Source: a virus (Duplodnaviria > Caudoviricetes). From it: 64,000 nt of DNA. The notes under the pieces were generated by a model. That model did no database searches. It worked only from the letters and a program-made list of their open reading frames with translations, and was not told the DNA's origin. Location of the stretch: the IMG/VR virus record IMGVR_UViG_3300033072_001141, positions 1 to 64,000 of that record; one strand, 5' to 3'. Numbering within the stretch: position 1 is the first letter of the stretch; each line of letters begins with the position of its first letter. Shown piece after piece: positions 8,885-61,498 of the stretch. The position numbers were made by a program, and so were the translations under genes.

Positions 8885-9250
8885 CTACTCGGAACTGTCC
8901 AGCCGTCGCCGCGTCTCCTCGAACAGCGAATCGAAGCTCGGCTGGGCCGGAGGTCTCACCTTCGCCTTCCAGTAGCTCTCGATCGCCACGACCGTTCGCG
9001 ACGGAACCGCCACCAGCGCTTCCTCGACGAGCGCCACGAACAGTTCAGGGGTCTCGGGCCGAACGCTCGCTCGGCTCATCCCGACGACCGCGACGTAGGT
9101 GTCGATCGGCAGCTTGCCGCTGTCGTACGCCTCGGTGACGAGCCTCACGCGCTCGGCATGGCTGGCGGTGGCCGCGAGCATCCTCAGGAGCTTCGCGCCG
9201 CTCGGCGCCTGCTCCTGCAAGGATGCCCGCAGCTCATCCGCGATGCTCAC
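8885..9250 (-). CDS. Hypothetical protein with shared leader (MSIADELRASLQE)
   Basis: GTGA coupling. Confidence 0.65.
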   Translation of the reverse strand: MSIADELRASLQEQAPSGAKLLRMLAATASHAERVRLVTEAYDSGKLPIDTYVAVVGMSRASVRPETPELFVALVEEALVAVPSRTVVAIESYWKAKVRPPAQPSFDSLFEETRRRLDSSE

Positions 9251-10632
9251 TTCTTGCCGCCCTTGCGCATGACGACGAACTTGCTCTTGTCGTAGTTGCC
9301 CTTCTCGTCCTTCGGCCAGACGAGGGTCGCGTTGCCGGTCCACGCGCCACCGACCCCCATGAGGGACGGGAGGTACTTCTTCACGGCCTTGCCCGCCGGA
9401 CCGCCCATCGTCTTCGCGAAGTCGGCCAGGTCCACGACGTGCCTGTCCGGCGCGTCCTGGATCATCATGTTGATGAGGTCCTTGACCGCCGCGATCTCCT
9501 GCTGGGACTCGCTGGAGAACTGCTTGTACTTCTCCGGGTCCCACCACGGCTTCTTGCCCTCGGAGAGGAGCGCCTCCAGCTCTCCCGACAGGCCCTCGCC
9601 GCGCATCTGGGCGTCGACGTGGGCCTTCTTGCCCGAACGCTGGGCCTTGTTGAACTTCTTCTTGTCGTCCTTCTTGCCGGTCGGGCCTTGCGACCAGAAC
9701 TCGCCGGCAGCCGCCGTCTCGCCCCTGCCGTAGCCGGTGCCCTTCGACCGCGCACCCTCGGTCGCGCCCTCGGCCATGCCCCCCTTGCGCTTCTTCTTGC
9801 CGCCGCACCCGCACGCCTCGCAGGTGTCGCCGTCCTCGTCCTCGTCGTCTTCCTCGTCGTCGTCTTCCTCGTCGTCGTCTTCCTCGTCCTCGTCGTCCTC
9901 TTCTTCTTCGCGCAGCTCGCCGACCTTCACCGCGTGATCGGCCGCCTTGCCGGCGAACTGCTCCAGCTCGCGGAGCTTGCGCACGATGGGGGTCAGGAGG
10001 GTCCCCGCCTCGGTGTTGCCGGCGCCGACGCGCCGCAACCCGTCCATCTGCTTCTGCGCGTCCTTGAACGCCTTGAGGATGTCGTCCAGGCGCGACTGGA
10101 ACATCTTGTTCAGGGCGCCCTCCGCACCCTGCTTGATGAGCGTGGCCGCCTCGTCCGCCGGATCCGCGGCGCGCTCGAAGAAGCGGTCCTCGCCGATGGA
10201 GAACGTGGACTTCCCGTGGCGCGCGACGCCGCGCTTGACGGCGTTCACGGTGTCGATGACCCACTTGGTGGGATCGTTCGCTGGCACGAACGCAGACGAC
10301 ACGAGCGCCTTCCCCACGGTCACGGCGACGTTGAACCGCCCGGCCTGCTCCTCCGTGTCGATGACGACGGCGAAGTCGTTGCCTCCCATGCCGCCGGAGA
10401 CCGAGATCACGCCGCCCTTCGCGGTCACCTTGACGCCGGACACCCCGTCTTCCTTCGCGAGCGCCGTCTTGAGGGAGGTCGCGAAGGTCTTGCCGGCGTC
10501 CGGCTCGCCGTACGCGCCCTCGGGGTCGCCGTAGTGGATGGAGGACCCAGCGCCGAAGCCGGACCGACGCCTCCCCTCGTCGAGAGGACCGTCGGTGATG
10601 GTTCGCAGTTCTTCGAGAAGGTTCATGGTCAT
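9247..10632 (-). CDS. Putative internal head/scaffold-like polyprotein with acidic tract
   Basis: Leader MNLLEEL...PLDE; D/E tract; Lys-rich segments; several x-x-E linkers. Confidence 0.7.
   Translation of the reverse strand: MTMNLLEELRTITDGPLDEGRRRSGFGAGSSIHYGDPEGAYGEPDAGKTFATSLKTALAKEDGVSGVKVTAKGGVISVSGGMGGNDFAVVIDTEEQAGRFNVAVTVGKALVSSAFVPANDPTKWVIDTVNAVKRGVARHGKSTFSIGEDRFFERAADPADEAATLIKQGAEGALNKMFQSRLDDILKAFKDAQKQMDGLRRVGAGNTEAGTLLTPIVRKLRELEQFAGKAADHAVKVGELREEEEDDEDEEDDDEEDDDEEDDEDEDGDTCEACGCGGKKKRKGGMAEGATEGARSKGTGYGRGETAAAGEFWSQGPTGKKDDKKKFNKAQRSGKKAHVDAQMRGEGLSGELEALLSEGKKPWWDPEKYKQFSSESQQEIAAVKDLINMMIQDAPDRHVVDLADFAKTMGGPAGKAVKKYLPSLMGVGGAWTGNATLVWPKDEKGNYDKSKFVVMRKGGKK
9832..9909. 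repeat. Low-complexity repeat encoding a poly-Asp/Glu tract
   Basis: TCCTCGTCGTCGTCT tandem at 9851-9880. Confidence 0.9.
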
Positions 10633-11123
10633 GGCCTCAGCTCCGCGATGATAGCGCCCACGGCGACGGAAAGGACGATCCCGATGCCCAGACCGAGGAA
10701 GAGCGAGAACTCGTCCCCGTTCTCCTCCCACCACGTCCTCTGGGCTCGGGTGCGCCAGGTGGTGATCTCCTCGTCGGCGAGCTGGAGGTAGCGCTCGTAG
10801 ACGGCGCGCTCACGCGCCCATGTCCGCAGATCGATCTGGTACAGGCCGCGCAGCTCGTCGTACGCGATGCGCAGGCGCGCGGCGCGCGCGGCTCTGGCGT
10901 CCGAGAGAAGGATGCCGCTGCGTCGATCGCCAGGAGCCACCTCCGCGTCCTCGACCGGCGCGACCCAGTCGTCCTCGGGGGCGATCTCTTCTCGGGTCGG
11001 ATCCTCGGGAAGCTCCGCGAACGCGACTGGCTCTGGCATCATGCGGGAGGTCGCCTCCGGCAGCGCTGCCGCGCCGCATCCGGAGACGTACGCCACAAGA
11101 ACCAGGACCGACACGAAGCGCAT
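10629..11123 (-). CDS. Putative unimolecular spanin (lipoprotein with C-terminal TM helix)
   Basis: Signal MRFVSVLVLVAYVSG-C; C-terminal FSLFLGLGIGIVLSVAVGAII. Confidence 0.65.
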   Translation of the reverse strand: MRFVSVLVLVAYVSGCGAAALPEATSRMMPEPVAFAELPEDPTREEIAPEDDWVAPVEDAEVAPGDRRSGILLSDARAARAARLRIAYDELRGLYQIDLRTWARERAVYERYLQLADEEITTWRTRAQRTWWEENGDEFSLFLGLGIGIVLSVAVGAIIAELRP

Positions 11124-11194
11124 GGATCCTCCGACAGAGAAACGCCCGCCCGCGGTGTACCACGAGCGGGCGCTCCGAACTCGCGCTCGAACGA

Positions 11195-11443
11195 TCAGGC
11201 GTTGCGCGCCCGGTCGTACGTGTCGCGGGTCGCCGCGTCGTCGGCGTAGGCGACGGCGATCTGGCCCTTCTTGATCATGTTGTTGAGGGGCTTCCACGCC
11301 GGGTTGCCCTTCTCCTCGCCGTTGTTCAGGTCGGCGAGGTTCACACCGAGCGCGAACGAGCCCGAGGGCGCGAGCGTCCGGTTGAAGGGGAACGGGACAT
11401 CGACCGAGGCGGTGGCGGAGAGGTTCGTGACGGTGGCAATCAC
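11195..11443 (-). CDS. Small putative virion protein, paralogue of the 54420-54839 N-terminus
   Basis: MIATVTNL vs MDATVTNL. Confidence 0.65.
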   Translation of the reverse strand: MIATVTNLSATASVDVPFPFNRTLAPSGSFALGVNLADLNNGEEKGNPAWKPLNNMIKKGQIAVAYADDAATRDTYDRARNA

Positions 11444-12867: not shown

Positions 12868-13710
12868 TGCTGCCATGGGGATGCAGCCGATGGCGCTCTT
12901 GACAGCTTCCGGACACGGTGGCGGCATGTTTCCGCTCTTCCCGGAATCCTTCTGGAAGAAGAAGTCGGCCATCTGCTTGGCGTACTGCGAGATGGTGTCC
13001 TTGTTCTTCTCCACGAGCTTGGCCTGGAGCGGAGTCGTCGGCTTGTAGGCGTCGTGGAACCAGTCGGCCCACACGTCCTGGTTGGCCGTCCTGACCTGGA
13101 TCTCCTTCGGGAGACCGTCGTCGTCCACGATGACCAGGTGGTGGGACCGGTACCCCTCCTCCTTGGGGTTGTTGATGTAGTCCTCCTCGTCCTCGGAGAG
13201 GGTCTTGTACTTGGCCTTGATGGCCGCGACCGTCCGCTTCACCTCGGCGACCGTCTTGTGGACGATGCGCGCGCCGGTGCCGTCCTTGAGCTGGTCCGCG
13301 CGCTTGTACTTCGGCTTCCGGACCATCTTCCCGAGCATCGACTCCAGGTTCTTGGTCCTGGCCTTGACCTTGGCTCCGGGTCCGGCGATGTCGGTCAGAG
13401 ACCCCAGCAGCTTCTTGGCGCCAGCCTCGTGCTGAGACCGGAACGCCTTCGCGAGCTTGACGTGCTCGCCGAAGGACATGCTCTGATCGAAGCTGCCTCC
13501 CTTGAGCGCCTTCTGGAAGTCGCCGACGGTCCCGGCCACCTTCTCCAGGTTGCGCTGGTGCTTGGAAGCAGCCTCAGCGTCGCCCTTCACGCGCTCCCAC
13601 TCGCCCTTGGCGGTCTTGATGAAGTCGCCCGCCTTCCGCTTCCTGACGGTCCCGGTGGGGTACGCGGCGCGCTCGTTGAGCGCCTGGTCGAGGTCCTCGC
13701 TGAGCTTCAT
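12865..13710 (-). CDS. RelA/SpoT-type nucleotidyltransferase (small alarmone synthetase-like)
   Basis: RTKNLESMLGK, DGTGARI, DYINNPKEEGYRSHH, EIQVRT, WADWFH; ATGA coupling. Confidence 0.9.
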   Translation of the reverse strand: MKLSEDLDQALNERAAYPTGTVRKRKAGDFIKTAKGEWERVKGDAEAASKHQRNLEKVAGTVGDFQKALKGGSFDQSMSFGEHVKLAKAFRSQHEAGAKKLLGSLTDIAGPGAKVKARTKNLESMLGKMVRKPKYKRADQLKDGTGARIVHKTVAEVKRTVAAIKAKYKTLSEDEEDYINNPKEEGYRSHHLVIVDDDGLPKEIQVRTANQDVWADWFHDAYKPTTPLQAKLVEKNKDTISQYAKQMADFFFQKDSGKSGNMPPPCPEAVKSAIGCIPMAA

Positions 13711-14453
13711 GGTCTCTCCGGCCACTTCGACGCCAGTGGCATCATGCTCACCTTGAGCCTGGCCGCGTCGTCGTCCTGCATCTTGTCACCGCTCACGGCG
13801 GCGGAGAAGGCTTCCGCGAACCGATCGACCTGGTCGGCCCAGACCTCGCGCTCCTTCGCCTTGAACATGGACGCCCACACCGCGCGACCCAGTTCTGTCG
13901 CCAGCGCTGCCACGGATCCAGATGGCCCTGGGGCCAGCGCGATCGTGTCCCAGTCGCGGTCGTAGACCGCCCACTTCCCGGTGCCGCTCCACGTCGGGTC
14001 GAGCACCATCGTCAGCTCGGACACATCGAGCCCCCACTCCGAGAGCTTCCGAACGGCGACTCGAACCGTCTCCACGGTCCTGGCCGCCTCGGCTTCCGTG
14101 TACCCCCATGGGTTGCCCACGGCGAAGTCGCCGACGACCTTGATGAGCGGGTCCGCCACCCCGATGCCATCCCGAACCTTCGCGAGGGCTCGCTCAAGCT
14201 CGTCGCGTAGAGCCTCCAGAGCCTCGGCGGCAGTCCGATCGTGCCTCGACACGCGCACGTCGTGGATGCGCTGGCGAAGCCCGGTGACCATCCGGCGCAC
14301 CTCTGGGCGATCGCCGTGGAGACGGCCAGAAATCGTCTGCGCGAGGTCCGCCAACTCCAGCAGCTTCGCGCGCCGGGTGCCAACGACGGAGACCGCGACC
14401 GACACCTGGCCGATCTCCTTGGCAGCCCGCTGAATCTGCGTCGCGAGGTCCAT
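13707..14453 (-). CDS. Protein with degenerate zincin-like C-terminal domain
   Basis: AVYD..DTIAL...TELGR...FAEAF; HExxH is replaced by TELGR. Confidence 0.55.
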   Translation of the reverse strand: MDLATQIQRAAKEIGQVSVAVSVVGTRRAKLLELADLAQTISGRLHGDRPEVRRMVTGLRQRIHDVRVSRHDRTAAEALEALRDELERALAKVRDGIGVADPLIKVVGDFAVGNPWGYTEAEAARTVETVRVAVRKLSEWGLDVSELTMVLDPTWSGTGKWAVYDRDWDTIALAPGPSGSVAALATELGRAVWASMFKAKEREVWADQVDRFAEAFSAAVSGDKMQDDDAARLKVSMMPLASKWPERP

Positions 14454-14462: not shown

Positions 14463-15062
14463 TCAGAGGTTCCGGCCGAGCGCCACTTCGGCCGGCTTAC
14501 CAGAGGCAAGGCGCCAAGAGATGGTGTGGCGCTTGATCCCCGTCTCCCGCGACCATTCGGCCAACGTCATCTCCTTACCGAACGCGGCGATACGGCGGTT
14601 CGTTGACTGGTTGTTGCATTGCTCCCGCTGAGTGGCCCACCGACAGTTCTCCGGAGAGTAAGGGCCGTCGTTGTTGCGTCTGTCGAGGGAAGTTCCGTTG
14701 GGTCGCGGTCCCATGTCGTTCAAGAAGTTCTGGAACCCCATCGGACCGCACCATCGCTCGTCCACGAAGATCCCGCGCCCACTGTAGCGGGACGCCTTGG
14801 CCCTGTTCGCGTCAGAGCACCGCTGGTGCATCGCCGTCCAGGACTGGTACTCCGGCGTCAGCGCTGCGCTGACGCCATGGGTGGTTGCCGAACAGGTCCG
14901 GCACGCAATAGTCGATCGAAAGTGCGTCAGGTAGCAGACGGATTCGCGGCCACAGTCGCACCTAACATGGACCCTGGTGCATCCGCGGATCGGAGCCGCC
15001 TCGGCAACCACGACCCTGGTTCCGTAACGCTCTCCAATGACGACATTGGCCTTGGCCGGCAT
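14463..15062 (-). mobile_element. Free-standing HNH-type endonuclease (RCDCG / SLDRxxNDGxY family)
   Basis: RCDCG, EYQSWTAMHQRC, SLDRRNNDGPYSPENCRWAT. Confidence 0.9.
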
Positions 15063-15064
15063 GG

Positions 15065-15391
15065 CTACAAACTCCGCTGGAGCCACCCGGCGAGCTGGCG
15101 CCGAGCCTCCTTGGGGTCGGTCTTGCCGACTTCCTCGATGCGCTCGATCTCGGAGCGCTGCGCCTCGGCCGTCGCCGTGACCTTGGCCTTCTCGACCTCA
15201 CCTTCGAGGTGGACGCGCTCGACCTCTTGCTTCGCCCGATCGGCGAGCGTGGGAGGAAGCGGATCCGTCCCGCCACCTCCAGTGCCCTTGCCCGGCCTGG
15301 TGGTGAACCTCCAGACGACGAAGAACACCGTGGCAGCCACGGCCACGAAGGCCCACCACCACTGCCGGATGAAGCGCCAGGCTGCCGTCAC
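15065..15391 (-). CDS. Putative inner-membrane spanin-like protein
   Basis: N-terminal TM (WWWAFVAVAATVFFVVW) followed by coiled coil. Confidence 0.55.
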   Translation of the reverse strand: MTAAWRFIRQWWWAFVAVAATVFFVVWRFTTRPGKGTGGGGTDPLPPTLADRAKQEVERVHLEGEVEKAKVTATAEAQRSEIERIEEVGKTDPKEARRQLAGWLQRSL

Positions 15392-15951
15392 CGCGCCCTC
15401 GCGCTGATCTCGTTGAAGGTGGGGCGCATCACGATCTTGTAGCCGGCGCCGGTCTTGCCGGTGACCGGCTGGACGGTCACCGACGCCCTGGCCGCCTCCT
15501 GAGAGGCGCGCGCGAGGCGCTGGGCGCGGTCCATCTCGTCGGCCTCGACCGCGTAGCTCTCCTCCTCGGAGAAATGCGCCTCCATGAAGCGGGCGATCTC
15601 CGGAGCGATGCGCTTGGGGTCGATCTCGTAGATCGCGAGCAGGTTCTCCGGGTCGCGGATGAACGCCACGTCCTCCTTCATGAGGATGTAGCCGACCTTG
15701 GCCGCGATGGTCTGGATGAACCATCGACCCTCGGTCCGCTCCCTGGCCACGGACGGATCGATCAGCCCGAGGTCGAGGTACCCCTTGGCGATCGCCGCTT
15801 CGTACCTCGGGCCGATCAGGCCCGTGTACTTCGGCTCCTTCCCACGGCGGCGCACGTAGACATCGTCGCCGGCCTTGACGCCGTACGCTTCGTGGAGGTC
15901 CCACGGGACACTCCCGTCGGCGACGGCTTCTTCGAGCTGGCGAGCGAGCAT
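15388..15951 (-). CDS. Hypothetical protein with leader-like start (MLARQLEEAV)
   Basis: ORF track; codon bias. Confidence 0.65.
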   Translation of the reverse strand: MLARQLEEAVADGSVPWDLHEAYGVKAGDDVYVRRRGKEPKYTGLIGPRYEAAIAKGYLDLGLIDPSVARERTEGRWFIQTIAAKVGYILMKEDVAFIRDPENLLAIYEIDPKRIAPEIARFMEAHFSEEESYAVEADEMDRAQRLARASQEAARASVTVQPVTGKTGAGYKIVMRPTFNEISARAR

Positions 15952-45510: not shown

Positions 45511-45521
45511 AAAGCACCCTC

Positions 45522-46808: not shown

Positions 46809-47761
46809 GACTTGCTCCCGAACATGAGAAGGCGCCTTGCCACATCGTATGTGGTGAGTCCTCCGCCTCCGTACGGCGTGTAACCACCCATATCCGCCAC
46901 TGGAAGCCTGACGCTGATTCCGGTTGGTGATCCGACCTTCGTCAGATTTCCCGTTCCTACGGCAGGTGTCACCGTGGCTGGCACCGTGAAGAACGATGCG
47001 CCGGTGTACGCGAGAGTCCACGACACAACGTCGGTAGGCAACTCTCTCCTGCTCAGGGCCGTGCCAATCGCCGTTCTGAGCTGATCGTCGGTCAGGGTGC
47101 CGGACAGATAGCCAAGTCCGAAGTATCCAGACCTAGCGTCTCTCTCGTCAGTGAACGCGGTTGTCCACCCGATCCTCAGCGTACCGGCTGACGCTGGGCT
47201 CACCGCTCCCGACTGAGATGCCGTGAACTCGTGAGGACCAGGCCCGACCCACACACTCACCGTGGTCGTTCCAGCGCTCTCTGTGACCCTAAGCGCCACG
47301 GCAAAGAACGAACCGACACGAATGTTCGAGAACAGAAGGTTCTGCGGAATCTGTAGCGCCGTTTCGACGCCACCGACATAGACGCGCGCCTGGAACTGTC
47401 CGTACTGCCACCACATCTCCCATCCGGTGGTTCCGTTGATGTTCCTGGCAATCGGATGAACCTTCGACACATCGAGGTTTCTGGCCGGTGAGAAAAGCAC
47501 CAGTACGATGAACTGCGTTGCCCCTGGGGCCAGCCCGGTCGTCGCGCCTTCGTAGTAGTTCGACAGCGAGTCCGTGAAGAACCCTCGGGCGAGAGGAGCC
47601 TCTCCCTCGCGAGGATCGAACACACCCGACCCGTCGCGCATCCGGAACGCGTTTCCGTTCCTTCGGATGCCACCCAGAGCAGACGGATCCGCCAAAGCAT
47701 CGTCCAGGATGATGCCCTCTTCGTCCGACTCTCCAGGTCTCCTGTCAGGAGTCTGAGCCAC
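46805..47761 (-). CDS. Structural protein with LamG/ConA-like domain, lower GC
   Basis: GWEMWW, FFAVAL, LRIGW, LTDDQL pattern. Confidence 0.65.
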   Translation of the reverse strand: MAQTPDRRPGESDEEGIILDDALADPSALGGIRRNGNAFRMRDGSGVFDPREGEAPLARGFFTDSLSNYYEGATTGLAPGATQFIVLVLFSPARNLDVSKVHPIARNINGTTGWEMWWQYGQFQARVYVGGVETALQIPQNLLFSNIRVGSFFAVALRVTESAGTTTVSVWVGPGPHEFTASQSGAVSPASAGTLRIGWTTAFTDERDARSGYFGLGYLSGTLTDDQLRTAIGTALSRRELPTDVVSWTLAYTGASFFTVPATVTPAVGTGNLTKVGSPTGISVRLPVADMGGYTPYGGGGLTTYDVARRLLMFGSKS

Positions 47762-48332
47762 GCTTCACGCGTCTCCTGGTCGCCTGGACCGCTCTCTTGG
47801 CTACCGGAGATGACGGCACCGCCTGAGCATCCGCCTGAGCATCCTCAGACATGGCCTCGCGGAGACGCTGCTCCTTGATGGACACTGGGGCGCGCCTTCC
47901 CTCCGGCCTGCCCTCCGACGCAGCATCGAGCACCGGCTGCTCGGATGCCTCCTTCTCCAGCTCGATCAGCTTGGCGCGTTCGGCGTCGAAGCGCTTCTTC
48001 ACCAGACCCACGAGCTTCTCGGTCTGCAACACCGCTCCGCTCTTGGCGATGACGGCGTTGGTAGCCTGCGCGTGCAACGTGGTGCAGACGCCCATGGCAC
48101 GCTGCACCCACTTGGAAACAACCGACGCCGTCTCCATCGGGATTTTGCCGTCGTTGAGGTCCTGCTGTAGGTGCGGGAGGAGCTGCCCGATCAACTTCTC
48201 CGCCGTCGCATAGGCCGCCTTGGCACCTTCCTGCTGCTGCACCTCGACCTTCGCCGCTTCGAGCTGGTCGTCGAGGTCCGCGCCGATGTCGTTGGTGACC
48301 GCGACGCGAATCTGCTGCTTGAGCACACTCAC
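47745..48332 (-). CDS. Coiled-coil hypothetical protein
   Basis: GAGGTGA RBS; heptad pattern. Confidence 0.65.
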   Translation of the reverse strand: MSVLKQQIRVAVTNDIGADLDDQLEAAKVEVQQQEGAKAAYATAEKLIGQLLPHLQQDLNDGKIPMETASVVSKWVQRAMGVCTTLHAQATNAVIAKSGAVLQTEKLVGLVKKRFDAERAKLIELEKEASEQPVLDAASEGRPEGRRAPVSIKEQRLREAMSEDAQADAQAVPSSPVAKRAVQATRRRVKRGSDS

Positions 48333-48350
48333 CTCATGCCTCCATCTGAA

Positions 48351-49931
48351 TCAGGTGTAGCGCGCGTACGGGACGACGCAGATCACATCGGGCGTGGCAC
48401 CGGTTCCCTTGAGGGCGAACTCGAACCGGAGCTGGCCGTTGGCCAGCGACGTGCCGGGGTAGTAGTCGTTGTTCGCCGCCGCGTTCGCGCCAGGCCGGAG
48501 GAGCTGTCCGTTCAGGAACACGTCGTAGTCGGTGAGGAAGTCGCCGATGCTCATGTCGGGTAGCTGCGCGCTGAGGTTCGCACCTCCTCCGACGCCACCC
48601 ACGTCCGTGTCGGCCGCCGTGTTCGCCGTAACGGCGGCATACACCTTCGGCCGACGGCGCGCCTGGGCGATCGCGCGCAGGAGCGAGACCTCGCCGAAGG
48701 CGGTCTCGAACCTGTCCCACTCCGCCGTGGTGTCGGAGAGCTTGATGCCGGCCGTCTGCGCCCAGGTGGAGCCGGCCTGGTTGCCGTCGTCGAGGTACAG
48801 TTCGGCGAAGCCGCGCACCTCCAGGTCGCCGGCCGTCGTCGCGAGCACGCCGTCCGTGACGCCGACCGCGATGGGCCTGGTGCCGCCGGACCGGATGGTC
48901 GCGCCCGCCGCGAAGTCGTTCACGACCGCGTCGTTGTTGAACATGTCCACGTCCGTGCCGAACTGGATCTGAGACGTGCCGCCGCCGCTTCCCTCCAGGA
49001 CGCGGAAGAGCAACGCGTTCGTGAGGTCGCGGATGCGCCACGCGATGCCGGCGCTGTTGAGGTCCAGGTCGGCGTTGGTGGTCAGCTCGACGGGCGTGGT
49101 GCCCTGGTTGTCGTAGGCCACCTGGCGGGTGACGGTGGATCCCGAGGGGGTGTCCACGATCGCTCCACGGAGGAAGTCCTGCTCGTTGAGGTCCTCCAGC
49201 GCCTTGCGCTCGACCGACGCGTAGTTGACCGTCCGACCCTCGATGTCGGAGACCGGACACGCCTCCAGGTCGTCTCCCGCCGCGTTGATGCGCACGAACG
49301 AGAGCTGCGCCCTGTTCGGCGTGGTGCCCGTCATCGTGTGGCCGTCGGTCGCGGTCTCGGTCTGGAAGAGCGCGTAGACCGTGCGGCCAGAGGAAACGAT
49401 GGGATCGCGAGACGCACCGTCCACCACCTCGCAGAGGTTCTTCGGGCTGATCGCCGTCGATCCGGACACCTCGGTCAGCGAGTGCGAGGTGCCGAACGAG
49501 CCGCCATGAGCTGCCGCCACCGTGCCGCGCGTCGTGACCGCGCCGACCGCCGCCGTGGTGTTGCTCGGAAGCTGGGCGAGCGAAAGGACGACGTAGTTCT
49601 GGGTCGCCGGAACCGCCACGTCGGAGAGGTTCGTGACCGTCACGAGAACGCGCTTGCGCTCCAGCGCGTGGAGGTCGTCCGCGATGGTCTGGACGCCACG
49701 AACTGCGCCCTCGGACGGAAACACCGGCGGAGCCGTGAAGGCGTCGTACCAGTTCCCGGTCTGGAGGTCGTTGAAGTACGACAGCATCGACCGGATGTTG
49801 TTCAGGTCATCTGCGAGGCTGACCGCTCCCGACTCCATGGTCGCCGCGGGAGCCACGTTGTCCACGAAGCCGACATCCGACTGGTTCGTCGAGCTGACCT
49901 GAGCATCCTGACGAATGAAGGTGCGGGCCAT
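48351..49931 (-). CDS. Virion structural protein (fibre/collar-like)
   Basis: AGGAG RBS; TGgTAGGCT extended -10 at 49953-49961. Confidence 0.7.
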   Translation of the reverse strand: MARTFIRQDAQVSSTNQSDVGFVDNVAPAATMESGAVSLADDLNNIRSMLSYFNDLQTGNWYDAFTAPPVFPSEGAVRGVQTIADDLHALERKRVLVTVTNLSDVAVPATQNYVVLSLAQLPSNTTAAVGAVTTRGTVAAAHGGSFGTSHSLTEVSGSTAISPKNLCEVVDGASRDPIVSSGRTVYALFQTETATDGHTMTGTTPNRAQLSFVRINAAGDDLEACPVSDIEGRTVNYASVERKALEDLNEQDFLRGAIVDTPSGSTVTRQVAYDNQGTTPVELTTNADLDLNSAGIAWRIRDLTNALLFRVLEGSGGGTSQIQFGTDVDMFNNDAVVNDFAAGATIRSGGTRPIAVGVTDGVLATTAGDLEVRGFAELYLDDGNQAGSTWAQTAGIKLSDTTAEWDRFETAFGEVSLLRAIAQARRRPKVYAAVTANTAADTDVGGVGGGANLSAQLPDMSIGDFLTDYDVFLNGQLLRPGANAAANNDYYPGTSLANGQLRFEFALKGTGATPDVICVVPYARYT

Positions 49932-49964
49932 CTTTTCTCCTGCGGTTGTGGGAGCCTACCACGC

Positions 49965-50651
49965 TCATGGAGCGGGCACGTAGTCGATCACCAGCTTGTC
50001 CGTTGAGCGCGGAGGGAACTGCATGTGGATCGTGTCGTACCCGGTCCCGATGCCACCGCTCTCCTCGGCCACGTAGTCGTTGCCTGCGCCCTCGTCGAGC
50101 AACACCCCGTTGAGGTACACCGACTCGCGCTCGTAGCCCACGTGGACGAACTTGGCGCCCACGGTGAAGATGAGGTTCACCGAGTTCTTCGTGCCGAGGA
50201 CCGGCTCCCGGTATCTCCGCACGGCGGATCCATCGGGTCCGCCGAAGGCCACGTCCTGCGGCGAGACCAGCAGCTCGTTCGAGCTGGTCGCCACCGCCAT
50301 CTGCTGGAAGAAGACGGATCCGGACGGGTAGGTCAGGTCTCCGACCTTTGCCAGACGCCCATCGGTGCCTACCAGGTACGCCACACCGGCGACGAGACCG
50401 GTGTAGATGCCCACCATCGGACCGTGGAACTGCACAACGCAGAGCGTCGGGCTGTCCTTTCGGACAATGACGCCGACCGCCGGTGGGCTGCCGGGGACCG
50501 TGATGTCCACCCTGGCGACCTGGTATCGGTTCGCGACCTTCGGCCCGGTGATGCGAACGCAGTCGCCGACGAGATCTCCGGCCAAGCAGTTGGCCTTGCC
50601 CAAGATCTTCTGCGCGCGGGGAATCGAGGCTGCGTTCACCTTCGCGGTCAT
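49965..50651 (-). CDS. Virion structural protein
   Basis: GLVAGVAYLVGTDG; VYLNGVLL..G..NDY motif shared with the 48351 C-terminus. Confidence 0.65.
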   Translation of the reverse strand: MTAKVNAASIPRAQKILGKANCLAGDLVGDCVRITGPKVANRYQVARVDITVPGSPPAVGVIVRKDSPTLCVVQFHGPMVGIYTGLVAGVAYLVGTDGRLAKVGDLTYPSGSVFFQQMAVATSSNELLVSPQDVAFGGPDGSAVRRYREPVLGTKNSVNLIFTVGAKFVHVGYERESVYLNGVLLDEGAGNDYVAEESGGIGTGYDTIHMQFPPRSTDKLVIDYVPAP

Positions 50652-50665
50652 CGGGCCCCAGCCTA

Positions 50666-51301
50666 TCAGAGCCGCGCGTCGTCGTTCCTCGTCACGGCGC
50701 TCACGATCTCGACCGCCGCGGAAGTTGCGCGCGCGGCCACCGGGCTGACCGTCGCCAGCGTCAGTTCGGCCACATGCTCTGGCTGGACCTCAAGCTCCTG
50801 GATGGACACGTCCGAGGAGGTCGCGTCGAAGTCGGAGCCCGCCTTGTACCTCGTCGGCAGGCAGTCGTAGAGGATCCACCCGCGGCCTGGAGTTCGTAGT
50901 GCTGCCTGGAGGAACGCCGTGTCGGGGAACGAGAGATTCGAGCCTGTGACCTGCGACTGCACCTTCCAGCCGAGGAAGTGGACGATCACGAGCGTGCGCC
51001 GAATCGGCTGCCGCCCGACGATGGCCCCGGTGATCCAGTTGTAGAAGTCGGAGTCGTAGAAGCGCGCCCCCCTGGACATCGAGACCGGACCTGCCTCGGC
51101 CTTCTTCACGATCCGGCGCTTGTACTCCCAGTTCCCCGGTTGCACATCGCGCAGCTCGACGGAGATCTCCGGAGCGGTGCAGGCCGAGAAGCCGAGCGCC
51201 GGATCGAAGATGCTGAGCAGCGAGTTCCCGCTGGGTCCCGACGCATCGAAGACCCAGAACGGGAACGCCTGCATCATGTCGAGAAGCCGCGCTCTCGCCA
51301 A
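50666..51301 (-). CDS. Tail tube-like protein, paralogue 2 (gp19/gp54-like)
   Basis: GFSACTAPEI, GPVSMSRG, P.RYKAGSDFDATSSDVSIQELEV; TTG start. Confidence 0.85.
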   Translation of the reverse strand: MARARLLDMMQAFPFWVFDASGPSGNSLLSIFDPALGFSACTAPEISVELRDVQPGNWEYKRRIVKKAEAGPVSMSRGARFYDSDFYNWITGAIVGRQPIRRTLVIVHFLGWKVQSQVTGSNLSFPDTAFLQAALRTPGRGWILYDCLPTRYKAGSDFDATSSDVSIQELEVQPEHVAELTLATVSPVAARATSAAVEIVSAVTRNDDARL

Positions 51302-52445: not shown

Positions 52446-53015
52446 TCAGACGCCGATGCGGGTGCCGTCCGGGCGGATGACGCCCCAGCGCTCGACGGCC
52501 ACGTCCATCTCCATGATGCCCACGTCCGAGGTGGAGGCGTCGAGGTCGCCCGCGATCTTCACGCGGATGGGGAACGCCTCGAAGAGGAAGTAGCGCTTCG
52601 CCTCGTTGTTCGGGAACGAGGTCGCGAGGTCGTGCGGGAACGACCGGCCGGCGCGCGTCGCGTGGAACACCGTGATGTCCGTGCGGTACTCGCGACCCTC
52701 GATGGCCGCCAGGACCCAGCTCAGGAACGCCGTGTCGTTCCTGCCGACGCCGCGGGAGAAGGTGCAGTCGTTCACCGTGGGGACGCCCGGGTACTTCTCG
52801 GTGTAGGTCTTGATGCCCTCCCGGTACTCGGCCGCCTCGACCGTGAACTCCGGGGTGGTGACCGCCGTGAAGCCCGCCTCGGACGTGTCACCCACGCCTG
52901 GCGAGGGAACACCACCGGGCTGCATCGCGTCGATGGCCGCGAGTCCGTCGATCGCGCCAGCGCGCGCGTGGAAGCGGAAGTTGTGCAGCGGATCCGTCGC
53001 CTGAGCCCTCGCCAT
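52446..53015 (-). CDS. Tail tube protein (T4 gp19-like)
   Basis: DPLHNFRF, GFTAVTTP, YREG, KYPG, FLFEAFP...GDLDASTSDV. Confidence 0.92.
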   Translation of the reverse strand: MARAQATDPLHNFRFHARAGAIDGLAAIDAMQPGGVPSPGVGDTSEAGFTAVTTPEFTVEAAEYREGIKTYTEKYPGVPTVNDCTFSRGVGRNDTAFLSWVLAAIEGREYRTDITVFHATRAGRSFPHDLATSFPNNEAKRYFLFEAFPIRVKIAGDLDASTSDVGIMEMDVAVERWGVIRPDGTRIGV

Positions 53016-53033: not shown

Positions 53034-53582
53034 TCAGTAGCTCGGAGTCAGAACCACGTTCCGACCGATGATGTCACCCAGGGTGGTGAACCTTCCCTCG
53101 CCCAGTTCGAGTGGGGTGGGAAGCTGGGACACCCGGTTGATGAACTCTCGGAGGGTCATGTCCTCCTCGGCCATCTCCGTAGCGATCAGGTTGTACAACG
53201 ACGGCCACTTCTCGACCATGGCCAGCACGTACAGCCCGCGGTTGAGGGACCAGTGGTTGCGCGACTCGCTCCTCCACCCACCGGAAGAACGCAGCGCGCG
53301 ACCGAAAGCCCTGGTCGGATCCATCTCTCGCAGGTCGATACCCTGCTGCGCGAACCTCTCCGCCGCGGACAGACCGTAGGCCGACGCCGCGTTCTCGCGG
53401 ATCCATCGGCGCCAGCTCGCCTGGTCCAGACCCTCGTGGCCCATGACCATGACTGGCAGGACGCCCTGCGCCTCCTGCGCCGGCCGAGATGCGTTGTCGA
53501 GACGCACGACACGCACGATCAGCCCCTCGTCGTCCGGAGGGGCGAAGGCGAGCGCGGAATCGAGCTGCTCGGAGAGCTTCAT
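53034..53582 (-). CDS. Hypothetical protein with shared leader (MKLSEQLDSAL), leaderless mRNA
   Basis: TGaTACGGT 7 nt before ATG. Confidence 0.7.
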   Translation of the reverse strand: MKLSEQLDSALAFAPPDDEGLIVRVVRLDNASRPAQEAQGVLPVMVMGHEGLDQASWRRWIRENAASAYGLSAAERFAQQGIDLREMDPTRAFGRALRSSGGWRSESRNHWSLNRGLYVLAMVEKWPSLYNLIATEMAEEDMTLREFINRVSQLPTPLELGEGRFTTLGDIIGRNVVLTPSY

Positions 53583-54419: not shown

Positions 54420-54839
54420 TCAGACCGCGACCGCCGCGTCCGTCGAGAACACGCGCCAGGCACCGTTGTCGTAGTACACGGGAACGCCCGTGCCGGCACC
54501 GGCCCCCTGCCCCACCTTCCGTCCGTTGGTGCAGAAAGCGACGAGCCCATCGACGGCGTCCGGAGCGACCGGAAGGTCGGCGAACGCGTAGCGGGGAAGC
54601 ATGTCGATCCGCATCGACCCGCGGGTTGGGGCCGCCCTGTCGGGGATCTCGTCGCCGACAGAGACGCTCACCTTGCCGGCGACGACGAGGCTCTTGAGCT
54701 GGGTGTCGCCGTCCAAGTCGGCGATGGTGAGGCCGGCCAGGACGACCGACTGCCCTGCCTTGACCTCCACCTTGGGGGTGGTCAGGAAGACATCGTCGTC
54801 GGGGGACGTGGTTCCGAGGTTCGTGACTGTCGCATCCAT
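54420..54839 (-). CDS. Small structural protein
   Basis: GGAGGAG RBS; FCTNGRK..GAGAGTGVPVYYD. Confidence 0.65.
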   Translation of the reverse strand: MDATVTNLGTTSPDDDVFLTTPKVEVKAGQSVVLAGLTIADLDGDTQLKSLVVAGKVSVSVGDEIPDRAAPTRGSMRIDMLPRYAFADLPVAPDAVDGLVAFCTNGRKVGQGAGAGTGVPVYYDNGAWRVFSTDAAVAV

Positions 54840-54863: not shown

Positions 54864-55184
54864 TCAGATCTGTCCGGACTTGCGTCCGATGTAGGCACAC
54901 AGGGCCTTGGGGTCCTTCACCCCCTTGCAGCACTCCGTGAACATCTTCTCGCACGACGAGAACTCCTGCCCCGTCGCGTTCTTGCCCTTGAACGAGCCGT
55001 CCGCGTCCATGTACTTCTTGCGGCACTCGTTGTCGCAGCTCATCGCTTCGAGCAGCGCTTCCTCCTGGAGACCCGAGGAGCGAGCGAGCGTGCGGATGAC
55101 CTCGTTGAGGTCCCCGCAGCACGGCCTGGCGGCGCCCCCTTCGAGGACGCCGTTCAGCTCTTCGCTCAGCTCCCTGAGTCCCAT
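54864..55184 (-). CDS. Cys-rich protein with leader-like start
   Basis: AGGAG RBS; ELSEELNGVLE. Confidence 0.65.
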   Translation of the reverse strand: MGLRELSEELNGVLEGGAARPCCGDLNEVIRTLARSSGLQEEALLEAMSCDNECRKKYMDADGSFKGKNATGQEFSSCEKMFTECCKGVKDPKALCAYIGRKSGQI

Positions 55185-55210: not shown

Positions 55211-57706
55211 TCAGCCGGTCGAGCTGAACTTCTGCTGGATGCGGAAGATGATGAACTCGCCCGGCTTGTTGGGCGCGATGTAGATGTCGCAGATGACCTC
55301 GCCCGCCTCCTCGTTGTCCGCCGTGTTGTTCGACTCGTCGCAGATGACCGAGACGGCGTCCGTGAAGGTGGTGCCGGCGAAGTAGCCCTGGTTGAAGAGG
55401 TTCCGGAGGAACGACTCGACCGAGACCTGGATGCGCTGCCGGAGCGACGCGCCCACGTTCTCGAAGACGAAGCCGTGCGTGCCGTTGTAGATGCTGCTCT
55501 TGAGGAAGTTGAAGAGCCGGCGCACCTGGACGTAGCGGAAGTCGTCCGGCGGGTTCTCCAGCGTGCGCGCGCCCCAGACCGCGCGGCCGGTCTGCGGGGT
55601 GTCCACCAGGGCGTTGACCTGGCTCTGGAAGAACGTGTCGATCTCGGCGAACTCCAGCCGGCGCTCCAGGCCCTCCGAGAAGAGCAGGCGTCCGTCCTCG
55701 GTTCCCGCGGGGGCCTTGGCGACGTTCTTGTTCGTGTCCGTGCGCGCGTACACGCCCGCGACGTGTCCGATCGGCGGGATGTTGGCGCCGCGCTCCGTGA
55801 ACGGATCGGTCACGCGGATGTACGGGTAGTAGAGCGCGCCGTAGCTCGACGAGATGCCGAGCGTGAAGCGCCTCCAGTCGCGCACCTGCTGGGGCGTCAT
55901 GCCCGGCGGGCTCGCGAGGATGATGAACCACTTCTGGTTCGTCTCGGCCTCGGCGATCTGGTCGCTGGCCATCGTCACGTCGCCGGCCGCGTCCGGGATG
56001 CCGACGTTCAGCAGCTCGTCGGTGGTGAGCAGCGCGTACATGCCGCGCCGATCGGACTTGAGGGCCGGGCTGGTCATCTCGGCGCGACCGATGCCCGCCA
56101 CACCGTCCGACCCGCCGGTGAGGGCGTCGGAGGTGGCCGTGTCCGCCGGGGTGACACGCGACGAGATCTGGATGATCGAGCCGGGGCGCGCACCGGTCGG
56201 GACCGCGAGGTTCGAGGTCTCCGCCTCCGAGACCGCCGCCACGGTCCGGAAGGCGATCTTGCCGGACGTGTAGTTGACCCGGTTGTAGCCGGTGGGGGGC
56301 GCCGGATCGACATCGCCGACCAGGTTGCCGTTGCCGTCGTCCGTGATCGTGCGCGAGACGCCGGCCACGTCGGTGTAGGTGATCGAGACCGAGCCCGGCT
56401 GCACCGGCGTCGCCAGCGCGTCCGTGCGGAACCCGACCGGGATCGACGGGAAGCCGTCCGGGTCGGCCGCCGCGGTCGAGCCCCAGTTCTGGTTCGAGCC
56501 GTTGCCCGAGCCGCCGGAGCGGGTGCGCAGCTTGCCGTTGAGCGACGACGGGATGACCGGCTCGTTCGCGGGATCGACCAGCGTGATGAGGTCCGACCCC
56601 TGGGTGGGATCGTTGATGGCGGTGATGACGTAGTCCGGGTCGGACGGGTCCGTCATCGAGAGGTTCAGGAAGGTCTCCTGGACCTCGCCGTCGAGGAGAA
56701 CCTGCACGTCCGCGCGCGAGTAGGTCGCGGTGGAGCGCGTGAAGGAGTCCTCGTTGCCCCGGACCTGGACCTCCAGGTCGTTGCCCCACGCGCCCTTCGA
56801 GATCGGATCGATGTCGAAGGCGCGGCACGTGTAGGCCGCGAGGACCGAGTTCCCGCGGGCCGGCGTCGCGGGGACCGTGGTGGTGAACGCGTAGGCGCCC
56901 GTCGCGTAGTCGATGGTGCCGGGCGCAGCGAGGTCGGCACCGGTCAGCGCGCCAGATCCATCGTCCGTGATCGTCGAGAGCGCGCCCTCCGGCGTGTAGC
57001 TCATCGTGATCGCGGTCGCGTTGTCCGGAGCCTGCCCCGTCTCCGCCGACAGCGCCCAGTGGCCGGTCTTGTAGTCGATGAAGCCGCGCGTGTCGCCCGC
57101 GCCGTCCTTGAGGATGCCGTCGAAGGCCGGGTCCGTGTAGGTGTACGGCGCGGCGGCGACGGTCGTCGTCAGCGTGACCGTGCCAGGGACGATCTTGGCT
57201 CCGCCAGCGACGGATACACGACCGGCGAAGTCGAGCAGGACGCTGTCCGTGGCCGGGGAGTTGTTGGTGGCCGCCGCGACGACCGGCGTGCCGAGCCGGC
57301 GCCAGGTGATCGACACCGACGACGCCTGGACCTGCGGCGCCTGCGCGAGAGACCCGGCGAACGCCACGACCGTTCCGTCGCCGGTCTCGATGGCCTCCTC
57401 GGTCACGTCGCTGGTGATGAAGCCGTCGGCCGCCACGGCGTCCGAGGCGACCACGCGCACGACGTACGCACGCCGACCGCCGTTCGCGAAGAACGCGAAG
57501 AGGTGCAGCGGCACGCCGCTCTGGTCGGTGAAGTCGCCGAAGGTCCGCGTGAACTGCTCGAACGACGACACCAGGACGGCCTCGTCGGTCGGACCGCGGA
57601 GCGTGAATCCGACGGTGCCGAAGGTGCTCGTGGACACGCCCGTGATGGGGGCGACGCCACGACGCCGCTCCTCGACGTAGACGCCCGGGTGCAACCTTTC
57701 GACCAT
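55211..57706 (-). CDS. Tail sheath protein
   Basis: HPGVYVEE, PPIGHVAGVYARTD...V.KAPAG, WGARTL, YVQVRRL, PNKPGEFI.FRI. Confidence 0.96.
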   Translation of the reverse strand: MVERLHPGVYVEERRRGVAPITGVSTSTFGTVGFTLRGPTDEAVLVSSFEQFTRTFGDFTDQSGVPLHLFAFFANGGRRAYVVRVVASDAVAADGFITSDVTEEAIETGDGTVVAFAGSLAQAPQVQASSVSITWRRLGTPVVAAATNNSPATDSVLLDFAGRVSVAGGAKIVPGTVTLTTTVAAAPYTYTDPAFDGILKDGAGDTRGFIDYKTGHWALSAETGQAPDNATAITMSYTPEGALSTITDDGSGALTGADLAAPGTIDYATGAYAFTTTVPATPARGNSVLAAYTCRAFDIDPISKGAWGNDLEVQVRGNEDSFTRSTATYSRADVQVLLDGEVQETFLNLSMTDPSDPDYVITAINDPTQGSDLITLVDPANEPVIPSSLNGKLRTRSGGSGNGSNQNWGSTAAADPDGFPSIPVGFRTDALATPVQPGSVSITYTDVAGVSRTITDDGNGNLVGDVDPAPPTGYNRVNYTSGKIAFRTVAAVSEAETSNLAVPTGARPGSIIQISSRVTPADTATSDALTGGSDGVAGIGRAEMTSPALKSDRRGMYALLTTDELLNVGIPDAAGDVTMASDQIAEAETNQKWFIILASPPGMTPQQVRDWRRFTLGISSSYGALYYPYIRVTDPFTERGANIPPIGHVAGVYARTDTNKNVAKAPAGTEDGRLLFSEGLERRLEFAEIDTFFQSQVNALVDTPQTGRAVWGARTLENPPDDFRYVQVRRLFNFLKSSIYNGTHGFVFENVGASLRQRIQVSVESFLRNLFNQGYFAGTTFTDAVSVICDESNNTADNEEAGEVICDIYIAPNKPGEFIIFRIQQKFSSTG

Positions 57707-59971: not shown

Positions 59972-59997
59972 GACCTTGTTCCTCCGCAGATCGTCGC

Positions 59998-60804
59998 TCA
60001 GGCCCGGATGTAGCGCTGGAAGCGCTGGACCTTTCGGATGTCTGAGACCTTACCAGTTTTCGCGACCAGCGGCCTCTTCCATCGCCTCTCGGAGGGGACC
60101 GCCAGCCACCGGAGGTACTTCTTGAGCTGCTGCTTGGCAAGCACCGTCTTCACGTAGCGGACGGCCGGCCTCCAGTGGGACACATGGGGTGCATCCCCGA
60201 GACCGAACTCCCTGCGGAGGACCTCGTACGCCAGATCCACGGTGACCCTCTGGTCGAGGAGCACCTTGTTCCTTCGGAAACTCTCGATCCCATGGGTCCT
60301 CAGCTCGGCCTCGATCCGCGGTCGCTCGGCCATCCTCATGGCCTCGATCTTCTCCGCGTCCTTGAGCGAGACCCTCCTGGAGATGATCTGCGCCACCCTC
60401 TTGGACGGCTCGTACGGGAGGGTGTCCATGGTCCACGGGTTGGACCTCCAGAGGGTCACGGCAGCCGGATCCATCGTCTTGCCCCCTGCGAGCTTGGGCT
60501 TGACGTAGAGCACGGTGCGGGGAGCGTCCGCCTGGGTCAGCCTCCTCCGGTGGGCGTACGCGGGCAGCCCGATCATGGCCACCCCCGCCATCCCGCGAAG
60601 CCTCACTCGACGAACCGTCAGGAGCTTCGCGTAGTTCGGGATGTCGGACGGCGCCATCCCTCTCAGGATCGGGAGCAGCGCCTTCGCGAGGTCGAAGGAG
60701 TAGTTCTCCTCGATCGCCTCGACGCGCCGACGCATCTCGTCCGCGAGCTTGTAGATGCGCTGGTTCTGCGCATGCTGGGTGACCTGGAACGAAAGCCCCG
60801 TCAC
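59998..60804 (-). CDS. Basic neck/tail-completion-type protein
   Basis: GTGA coupling; HWRPAVR; position in the module. Confidence 0.6.
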   Translation of the reverse strand: MTGLSFQVTQHAQNQRIYKLADEMRRRVEAIEENYSFDLAKALLPILRGMAPSDIPNYAKLLTVRRVRLRGMAGVAMIGLPAYAHRRRLTQADAPRTVLYVKPKLAGGKTMDPAAVTLWRSNPWTMDTLPYEPSKRVAQIISRRVSLKDAEKIEAMRMAERPRIEAELRTHGIESFRRNKVLLDQRVTVDLAYEVLRREFGLGDAPHVSHWRPAVRYVKTVLAKQQLKKYLRWLAVPSERRWKRPLVAKTGKVSDIRKVQRFQRYIRA

Positions 60805-61178
60805 CTCTCCACCCCCGTGTGCGAGTCGATCGGCTTCCACGGGTCGTCGCCAGACTCCATGACCCGCGTCAGCACCGGCAGGTGCTTCTTGCACACGCCG
60901 ACCAGCCCGGGTCCCTTGTTCCCCTCGACGATCTTCGAGGCTGGCTGACCGCACCGGAAGCAGAGCTTCGCGATCATGTCCCGCGTGAGCGGCCCCTCGT
61001 ACTCCGGGAACCCCATGCCTCCCAGCGGTCCGGCGCAAGCCTTCTTCTCGAAGGCCGCGCGACACTGGTCAAGACCTCGGTCGAGTCCCCAGTGGAGCTT
61101 CACGCACATCGCGCACGGGAAGGCGTAGCCCTTGGCGAGCGCCGACTGAACCTGGTCCTTCGGGATGGTGTAGATCAC
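60801..61178 (-). CDS. Cys-rich hypothetical protein
   Basis: CAMC, CFRCG...CKKH. Confidence 0.65.
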   Translation of the reverse strand: MIYTIPKDQVQSALAKGYAFPCAMCVKLHWGLDRGLDQCRAAFEKKACAGPLGGMGFPEYEGPLTRDMIAKLCFRCGQPASKIVEGNKGPGLVGVCKKHLPVLTRVMESGDDPWKPIDSHTGVER

Positions 61179-61498
61179 TGGCCGGCCGTGCTGTGCGCCC
61201 ACTGCCTTCCGTACGGGCCGGGCTTGTTCGACCTGACGAAGAGGTTCGGTGGGTCCGATCCCTGGGGCGCCCCGAACTCCGGCGGCGTGACCCAGAGCTT
61301 GTAGAGCGAGGTGTCCACGTCGAAGTTCACGTCGGTGCCGTCCTCGTTGGACCTCACACGCACAAGACCGCGCTTCGGATCCACGTCCTCGACGTAGCCG
61401 CTGGTCACCACCTCTCCGCCCGGCGTGCGCACGACGACGAGCTGCCCCACGTGGATGGAGACCTTGATGGCATTTTCGAGCTGCTCGGAGATCCGCAC
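61175..61498 (-). CDS. Small beta-barrel-like protein with shared leader (MRISEQLENAI)
   Basis: ORF track; codon bias. Confidence 0.65.
   Translation of the reverse strand: MRISEQLENAIKVSIHVGQLVVVRTPGGEVVTSGYVEDVDPKRGLVRVRSNEDGTDVNFDVDTSLYKLWVTPPEFGAPQGSDPPNLFVRSNKPGPYGRQWAHSTAGQ

Follow-up and report, generated by a model that had tools for sequence, protein, structure and literature searches.

The DNA analysed here (the window) comprises the first 64 kb of a viral contig of 81,793 bp in IMG/VR (record IMGVR_UViG_3300033072_001141; 66% GC, 43% complete according to CheckV), and the subject is a short leader peptide with which proteins of otherwise unrelated sequence begin. The leader is N-terminal in a fixed register, is under selection at the level of the protein, is portable between protein bodies and specific for a clade of phages, and is found together with a head module of T4 type (gp23/gp20/gp21). 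Proteins bearing it are referred to as carriers, and those encoded in the window are named after the position of the first nucleotide of their start codon (Table 1).

The contig has approximately 95 genes, every one of them on the minus strand, which were called with a home-made caller that uses a codon model and ribosome-binding sites (RBS). The presence of a tail sheath gene identifies the phage as a myovirus. Megablast against GenBank phages found no close cultured relative, and the best GenBank capsid match obtained with tblastn is 34% identical. In IMG/VR there are 26 related contigs. Three relatives (G001, G002, and G003) are complete genomes of 186–198 kb with terminal repeats, whose capsid proteins are 89% (G001 and G002) and 76% (G003) identical to that of the contig (G000); these four are referred to as clade A. 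The capsid protein of a more distant genome of 185 kb (G004, IMGVR_UViG_3300023202_000142) is 49% identical.

A Common N-Terminus on Unrelated Proteins

In a preliminary description of the window eight N-termini had been singled out because of a common amphipathic pattern. Gene calling confirmed all eight as real gene starts on the minus strand; the coordinates given were correct, and the details to be amended are that 61498 and 9250 have GTG as start codon, that the 10632 protein begins two residues earlier than described (MTMNLLEEL), that the motif of 55184 begins at residue 5, and that 15951 is out of register by one residue. The core of the pattern, written as a regular expression, has 21 matches among 22,104 positions of the proteome, of which 8 lie within the first 8 residues of a protein where 0.47 are expected. 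Since this expression had been fitted post hoc, tests that do not depend on a motif were used. Pairs of N-terminal windows with a BLOSUM62 score of at least 24 numbered 11–12, as compared to 3.1 ± 1.7 when random internal windows were taken and 2.6 ± 1.6 after column shuffling of the N-termini, and the observed level was reached in none of 400 null sets. Equally absent from all 400 were a hub of degree 5 and a triangle with all scores at least 25, which in the window is formed by 13710, 53582, and 61498. At N-termini the motif is in large excess over both internal and shuffled positions, the point on which the preliminary description had made its own proposal depend.

Two trivial causes of the likeness were rejected. 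A generic N-terminal bias does not account for it: neither the column-preserving shuffle nor the internal-window null reproduces the clustering. Paralogy fails too, as BLASTP of the bodies beyond residue 20 showed that the cited proteins are not paralogs (just two unrelated paralog pairs were found) and the carriers belong to 39 families. The bodies of 13710 and 14453 are linked only indirectly, via homologs in relatives, without a direct BLASTP match. The regular expression, taken from this window only, finds 10, 11, and 11 N-terminal matches in G001, G003, and G002, respectively, where 0.5–0.7 are expected, and almost half of its proteome-wide matches are N-terminal.

For a census a position-specific scoring matrix (PSSM) of 12 columns was employed with a threshold of 9.6, which is passed by 1 in 5,000 internal positions. 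In the four clade-A genomes 55 of 858 proteins (~6%) are carriers by this measure, the expectation being 1.4; 9 are encoded on this contig, 14 in G001, and 16 each in G002 and G003. The exact register M-x-[LI] is found in 40 of the 55. The consensus, [LI]-[SA]-x-[QE]-L-x-E-A-[LVMIA]-x-E, describes a periodic (L-x-E-x) helix, the shared peptide having 12 residues. Because the four genomes have orthologs in common, the independent unit is not the 55 proteins but the 39 unrelated families into which their bodies fall, 25 of which occur in a single genome. That the leader sits on otherwise unrelated proteins, as had been claimed, is borne out by these families and by its being swapped on and off homologous bodies: a G002 protein with leader (G002_13820) and a G001 protein without (G001_179009) are 84% identical from residue 38 on, and their N-termini are unrelated.

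TABLE 1. Carriers, head and tail genes, and related features. Positions are those of the window unless a genome is named; "genome" without a number is the contig.
Feature	Position	Strand	N-terminus	Leader	PSSM score	Matches and remarks
Ninth candidate carrier (1530), absent from the preliminary description, 282 aa	682..1530	-		1489-1530, MELSEEQQAAMAEL (leader-like)	19.4	Singleton family; no Pfam or PHROG match
Carrier 9250, 121 aa	8885..9250	-	MSIADELRASLQE	9209-9250, MSIADELRASLQEQ	16.3	GTG start overlapping upstream stop codon; L-Q-E at residues 11-13
Carrier 10632, 461 aa, no assigned function	9247..10632	-	MTMNLLEELRTI	10585-10632, MTMNLLEELRTITDGP	14.0	
Second leader-like copy near C-terminus of 10632	~9556-9591	-		LSGELEALLSEG	10.9	
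Carrier 13710, RelA/SpoT-type nucleotide pyrophosphokinase domain, 281 aa	12865..13710	-	MKLSEDLDQALNE	13669-13710 (codons 1-14), MKLSEDLDQALNER	20.1	Pfam RelA_SpoT 2e-23; L-N-E at residues 11-13, then basic patch
Carrier 14453, 248 aa, no assigned function	13707..14453	-	MDLATQIQRAAKE	14412-14453, MDLATQIQRAAKEI	14.0	
Carrier 15951, ORFan (open reading frame without known relatives), 187 aa	15388..15951	-	MLARQLEEAV	15913-15951, MLARQLEEAVADG	22.2	Register -1; L-E-E then A; body family singleton
Carrier 53582, 182 aa, between sheath and tube-like genes	53034..53582	-	MKLSEQLDSAL	53541-53582, MKLSEQLDSALAFA	25.3	
Carrier 55184, 106 aa, directly downstream of tail sheath gene	54864..55184	-	MGLRELSEELNGVLE	55134-55184, MGLRELSEELNGVLEGG	17.9	Motif begins at residue 5
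Tail sheath gene	55211..57706	-			 	Without leader; phrog_23 tail sheath 5e-58
Carrier 61498, 107 aa	61175..61498	-	MRISEQLENAI	61457-61498, MRISEQLENAIKVS	20.4	GTG start
Capsid protein	genome 64447-65958, outside window					Pfam Gp23 1e-60; PDB T4 gp23 1e-19
Prohead protease, 534 aa	genome 66023-67627, just outside window					Peptidase_S77 (PF03420) 3e-18; PDB 5jbl (T4 gp21) 2e-10
Portal	genome 69783-71627, outside window					Portal_T4 4e-62
SprT-like metalloprotease carrier	G003 97927-98739					4e-8
Borderline S-AdoMet-lyase-like carrier	G002 14599-15255					28.2 bits vs cut-off 28
G004 leader loci L063-L072	e.g., G004 44920-50783, 60001-60273, 170480-172272					

Leaders, Linkers, and Bodies of the Carriers

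The best-conserved family is that of 53582, which is present in all four clade-A genomes and has 39 homologs, the leader being retained down to 46% identity. The leader is followed by an indel-prone linker and, from about residue 21 on, by a folded body, and the indels between orthologs fall exactly in the linker. In agreement with this layout, the AlphaFold2 model shows an isolated leader helix (residues 3–11; predicted local distance difference test, pLDDT, <50), then a coil, then a body with pLDDT 70–90. For this family no Pfam or PHROG match, no PDB fold match, and no GenBank phage match was found.

The orthologs of the RelA/SpoT-type carrier in G001 and G002 retain the leader. In G003 the RelA/SpoT domain is fused behind another protein, and the junction, which terminates in L-Q-E, resembles a degenerate leader. 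The orthologs of 9250 begin MSISSLLSESMSER in G001 and MGIADLLIESMGER in G002, the G001 ortholog of 55184 begins MGIKALSKELDTVLEG, and those of 61498 begin MSISEELQGAVKIA in G002 and MALSDQLKDATKT in G001, where the protein had looked leaderless until its start was re-assigned. The weakest of the cited cases is 14453. The additional candidate 1530 could be a false positive that owes its score to a coiled-coil-like N-terminus.

The leader-like sequence near the C-terminus of 10632 has stronger counterparts in the families of G001_107765 and G002_84908, where the C-terminal copies score 11.4 and 20.1. Besides, strong internal copies of the leader are held by long carriers in the relatives (991, 517, and 555 aa), which suggests that the internal copies in long carriers are polyprotein-style joints.

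With respect to function, 17 of 20 carriers tested have no match in Pfam. The matches among these 20 are to a SprT-like protein, to a borderline S-adenosylmethionine (S-AdoMet) lyase, and, below cut-off, to a zinc ribbon. The presumed cargo consists mostly of fast-turnover ORFans, about 14–16 genes per complete genome. By analogy with T4 Alt and IPI*, the RelA/SpoT-like, SprT-like, and S-AdoMet-lyase-like bodies would fit roles in host takeover or anti-defence.

The preliminary description had the carriers scattered among late genes, which is correct only in part: three lie in the tail/neck region, and five are clustered at 8.9–16 kb, in genes that may or may not be expressed late.

Some further N-termini in the window resemble the leader or each other. 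The Gam-like protein (Sipho_Gp157; phrog_253 Mu Gam-like; window 6791–7288) begins MKLYELGEAY, which is leader-like by eye and fails the model. The adjacent genes 57706 (sheath) and 58252 (upstream, 180 aa) have the start MVERL in common, and the neighbouring genes 19188 and 19795 the start MPLDKS; both pairs came up in the pairwise comparison of N-termini and are unrelated to the leader. The second-best N-terminal pair of the proteome (score 34) is formed by the proteins encoded at 11195–11443 and 54420–54839, with (I/D)ATVTNL(S/G)(A/T)T; this pair lies outside the leader family and was not detected as body paralogs. Paralogs are found among the tail/baseplate proteins (27934–28917 and 26839–27924; 31% identity, starting AFTFSLNN and AWAFSLNN) and at the tube position (50666–51277 and 52446–53015; 29% identity).

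Selection Acts on the Peptide

The information in the leader is confined to the first two positions of the codons, the third being at background, and synonymous codons are mixed: Ser is encoded by TCG (7), AGC (8), TCC (15), and TCT (3), and Leu by CTC (24), CTG (8), and CTT (15). Upstream of the carrier starts no conserved sequence was found beyond an ordinary RBS. The constraint is therefore on the peptide and not on the RNA. T4 RegA binds sites lying over the start codons of numerous genes that are not related to each other, and the leader lies directly at the start codon. A RegA-type RNA operator should be conserved at the nucleotide level including synonymous positions, however, and was rejected by the codon analysis. 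That the leader is any RNA-level element over start codons, be it a RegA-like translational operator or a recombination hotspot, is considered the least credible of the explanations dealt with here.

A Sister Clade With Another Code

In G004 the leader has the same format and a different sequence. Eleven otherwise unrelated proteins of this genome begin with M-x-[LI]-[VI]-E-x-[VI]-D-x-L-L-E-A-[RK], where 0.39 would be expected. The G004 model finds no match at all in clade A, and the clade-A model finds one weak match among the 243 genes of G004, which have a similar GC content and were called with the same caller. The clade-A leader is therefore neither a generic property of N-termini nor an artefact of the gene caller. 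The sequences of the two leaders indicate that the code is clade-specific. The same format with a different code is what would be expected if the peptide co-evolves with a phage-encoded receptor while the rule of the protease stays fixed. In the ~50 genes each of the very distant relatives G006 and G007 (15%-complete fragments; capsid 32% identical) no leader signal was detectable.

Head Module and Candidate Cleavage Sites

A protease of the gp21 type, which the preliminary description expected outside the window, is indeed encoded just beyond it, near the genes for the capsid protein and the portal. Its motifs GELDHP and GVSSRG align with GELNHP and GVSSRG of wild-type T4 gp21, and the His and Ser, which we take to be the catalytic residues of gp21-type proteases, are kept. 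Peptidase_S77 was found in all five genomes (5/5). The gp21-like domain comprises residues ~8–170 and is followed by a helical, charged extension of ~360 residues with 10 [LI]-x-E sites, so that the protein of 534 aa may be a protease-scaffold fusion. Adjoining the protease gene is that of a 295-aa protein in scaffold position, which contains 11 [LI]-x-E sites (3.2 expected) and for which neither Pfam nor PHROG gave a match; BLASTP showed no similarity to T4 gp22.

T4 gp21 cleaves after L/I-x-E (PMC9026906). That carriers have [LIV]-x-E sites had been noticed before; it can now be said that the leader itself is built from L-x-E. In 46 of the 55 leaders there is an [LIVM]-x-E with its Glu at column 7 and/or columns 10–11, and where the Glu stands at column 7 it is followed by Ala at P1′ in 26 of 30 cases. 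Glu-Ala junctions are also found in T4: Ala follows MKTYQEFIAE in IPII and IPIII, gp22 begins MLKEQLIAEA (T4 record), and in gp23 an L-T-E at the end of the 65-residue propeptide is followed by Ala. The leader L-x-E, a candidate processing site, matches these junctions.

An L-x-E is also present in the capsid protein, which has a conserved Q-L-[QS]-E followed by D-T-L at residues 59–62, near the aligned boundary of the T4 gp23 propeptide (65 residues). This candidate maturation site, Q-L-x-E, is identical to the leader's core. In density of [LI]-x-E the proteome is headed by three carriers, the 295-aa scaffold-position protein, and the C-terminal extension of the protease, 55184 being at the top with 4.7 sites per 100 aa (median 0.83). 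The N-terminus of the capsid protein (MSEARQMLREA; MEARQIREAA in G002) is weakly leader-like, and the G002 copy is above the PSSM threshold; the cargo leaders may mimic the core-binding end of the capsid propeptide.

Comparison With Known Systems

The capsid-targeting sequence (CTS) of T4 is an N-terminal propeptide of 10–20 residues that binds the scaffolding core (PMC9026906, PMC3012670, PMC8442874) and ends MKTYQEFIAE (PMC8442874). In T-even phages the internal proteins make up a diverse defence set with just the CTS in common (PMC3012670, PMC9026906), and Alt is processed at both termini (PMC9026906). When the de novo method used for the window was applied to T4 as a positive control, it recovered IPII and IPIII (MKTYQEFIAE) with gp22 as neighbour. 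The degree of the T4 hub is just 4–5, so that the system described here, with 14–16 carriers per genome (~6% of the genes; 39 families over four genomes), is larger.

Several features are shared with T4. In both cases a short (10–20 aa), acidic, amphipathic N-terminal leader that contains or ends in L/I-x-E is found on unrelated, fast-evolving proteins; head proteins of the gp23, gp20, and gp21 families are encoded; and the scaffold-position protein is rich in L-x-E. Like T4 Alt, one cargo is a nucleotide-transferring enzyme, and the leader-like copies at both termini of the 10632 family recall the processing of Alt at two ends. As at the polymorphic internal-protein loci of the T-evens (PMC9026906, PMC3012670), the presumed cargo varies between close relatives and just the leader is conserved, 25 of the 39 families being singletons, and there is one swap of leader against no leader on a body of 84% identity.

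There are also differences. The code is L-S-E-Q-L-x-E-A-L rather than MKTYQEFIAE, with a partial resemblance (L-[KS]-E-Q-L) to gp22. The carrier genes are spread over several islands plus the tail region, and the bodies show no marked basicity. T4 gp21 has 212 aa, and the protease described here 534 aa with a 360-aa extension rich in L-x-E. The leader consensus switches between sister clades, and in the literature searched no such switch was found described for the T-evens.

Two other groups of phages are of interest. In phiKZ, 201phi2-1, and SPN3US, head and ejection proteins have N-terminal propeptides that are removed by gp21-related proteases after [SAG]-x-E or A-x-E, and paralogs with identical N-termini were proposed by the authors to carry CTS-like elements (PMC5694885, PMC9026906). 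The phages described here are likewise jumbo-sized and are predicted to process many head proteins after Glu by a diverged gp21 homolog. However, the propeptides of the phiKZ group mostly exceed 100 residues and show no common short consensus across unrelated proteins, and P3 is Ala, Ser, or Gly instead of Leu. In phage P1, an N-terminal packaging signal of DarB is sufficient to load this anti-restriction protein into the capsid (PMC9024508). The clade-A leader, a putative signal of this kind, is likewise N-terminal. The P1 signal has 10–30 residues, there is no consensus among the Dar proteins, and P1 has a head module of another type than T4. In the literature searched no description of such leader systems in uncultured T4-like phages was found.

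What the Leader Is Likely To Be

Taking these findings together, the sequences make it probable that the leader functions as a capsid-targeting propeptide in the manner of the T4 CTS, in a system that has been expanded and has become clade-specific in uncultured myoviruses of ~190 kb with T4-type heads. What this proposal, already made in the preliminary description, leads one to expect was found wherever it could be tested by computation: the N-terminal excess, the protease, the L-x-E sites, the 39 families, and the code of the sister clade. The code had been called new, which holds for its sequence; the mechanism is not wholly new since the principle is known from the T4 CTS. The leader helix, which is acidic and amphipathic and has 12–14 residues (M-x-[LI]-[SA]-x-Q-L-x-E-A-hydrophobic(-x-E)), would bind to the scaffolding core of the assembling prohead and thereby bring the protein bearing it inside the shell, where the gp21-family prohead protease would cut after an L-x-E that lies inside the leader or at its end, likely sites being Q-L-x-E before Ala or A-L-x-E before Arg. 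The mature cargo would then stay with the packaged DNA and enter the host at infection. Core binding, cleavage, encapsidation, and ejection are all steps that we infer, and loading into the head for injection is envisaged by analogy with T4.

Several points weigh against this interpretation. The N-termini of T4 IPIII, Alt, gp24, and gp22 score −3.9 to 4.9, well below the threshold of 9.6, and the leader is therefore regarded as working like the T4 CTS with a new code rather than as the same CTS. Three carriers are encoded in the tail/neck region, which is not where T4 has its internal-protein genes, and the carrier bodies are just slightly more basic than the other proteins (pI, the isoelectric point, 6.8 vs. 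6.1), whereas T4 internal proteins are strongly basic. Similarity to T4 gp22 could not be detected in the scaffold-position protein, which is thus only a candidate for the presumed receptor of the leader. In nine of the 55 leaders neither column 7 nor columns 10–11 have the Glu of an [LIVM]-x-E; this concerns also the best-conserved family, that of 53582, many orthologs of which have Ser, Thr, or Gly at column 7, so that processing may not be universal. It should also be noted that the genes were called with a home-made caller, that the four genomes searched with the PSSM are also those on which it was iterated, and that the phage is uncultured.

Of the other explanations, the one deserving most attention is that the leader serves as a tag for address or interaction whose phage-encoded partner is something other than the prohead core, for instance a chaperone or a compartment or import system, or that it is a degron for timed degradation or a zymogen-type propeptide by which enzymes are kept inactive until its removal. 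We consider it possible but rather unlikely. Portability, fixed register, selection on the protein, and a clade-specific code would fit any phage-encoded receptor equally well, and in its favour are also the carriers without a clean terminal L-x-E, the three in the tail gene region, and the lack of detectable gp22 similarity in the scaffold-position protein. Such a tag does not explain, however, why the leader has a gp21-type L-x-E build with Ala at P1′, why its core Q-L-x-E is the candidate maturation site of the capsid protein, or why the proteins densest in L-x-E include carriers alongside the scaffold-position protein; moreover, format and length match N-termini of the T4 CTS type, and no alternative machinery was seen.

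A recognition sequence for a modifying enzyme, RiPP-like (ribosomally synthesized and post-translationally modified peptide) and linked to a radical-SAM protein, was considered as well. A Radical_SAM domain (PF04055) is encoded in just one of the five genomes, G003; it is absent from G000, G001, G002, and G004. Since G001, G002, and G004 have leaders without it, the radical-SAM tag was rejected, and with no other candidate enzyme noticed adjoining the carrier clusters this explanation is most improbable. Equally improbable is the view that the leader is a chance or generic N-terminal amphipathic helix to which a motif was fitted after the fact. Admittedly, the motif of the preliminary description was degenerate and post hoc, the codon bias at 5′ ends favours K, S, T, and E after Met, and 1530, if not more of the cases, may owe its inclusion to a coiled coil. 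This view is opposed by the motif-free tests with internal windows and column-preserving shuffles (0/400 null sets), the replication in three genomes that had no part in the motif definition, the single weak match among 243 genes in the G004 control, and the orthologs that keep the leader at 46% identity.

Implications

Proteins injected by phages act before any phage gene is expressed, as exemplified by T4 IPI*, which is directed against a restriction enzyme, by T4 Alt, which acts on RNA polymerase, and by the Dar proteins of P1. They are usually found only through virion proteomics of cultured phages. Joining the results to the capsid-targeting interpretation leads to a picture for which belief and doubt are about evenly balanced: a capsid-address code readable from sequence, which co-evolves with the head core and is mutually exclusive between sister clades of distant uncultured T4-like jumbo phages, would mark a large, rapidly exchanged, virion-delivered arsenal, including a packaged RelA/SpoT-type pyrophosphokinase and an S-AdoMet-lyase-like protein which, at the moment the DNA enters, would act inside the host.

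Should this hold, the leaders alone would be enough to compile injected phage effectors from metagenomes, and a recognizable clade-specific address would nominate ~40 unknown protein families, among them that of the RelA/SpoT-type enzyme, as candidates for first-strike effectors. The leaders could also serve as protein-packaging tags in the engineering of phages of high-GC hosts, as the CTS does for T4. And the switch of the code between the sister clades would lend itself as a natural experiment by which to trace the presumed receptor on the scaffolding core.

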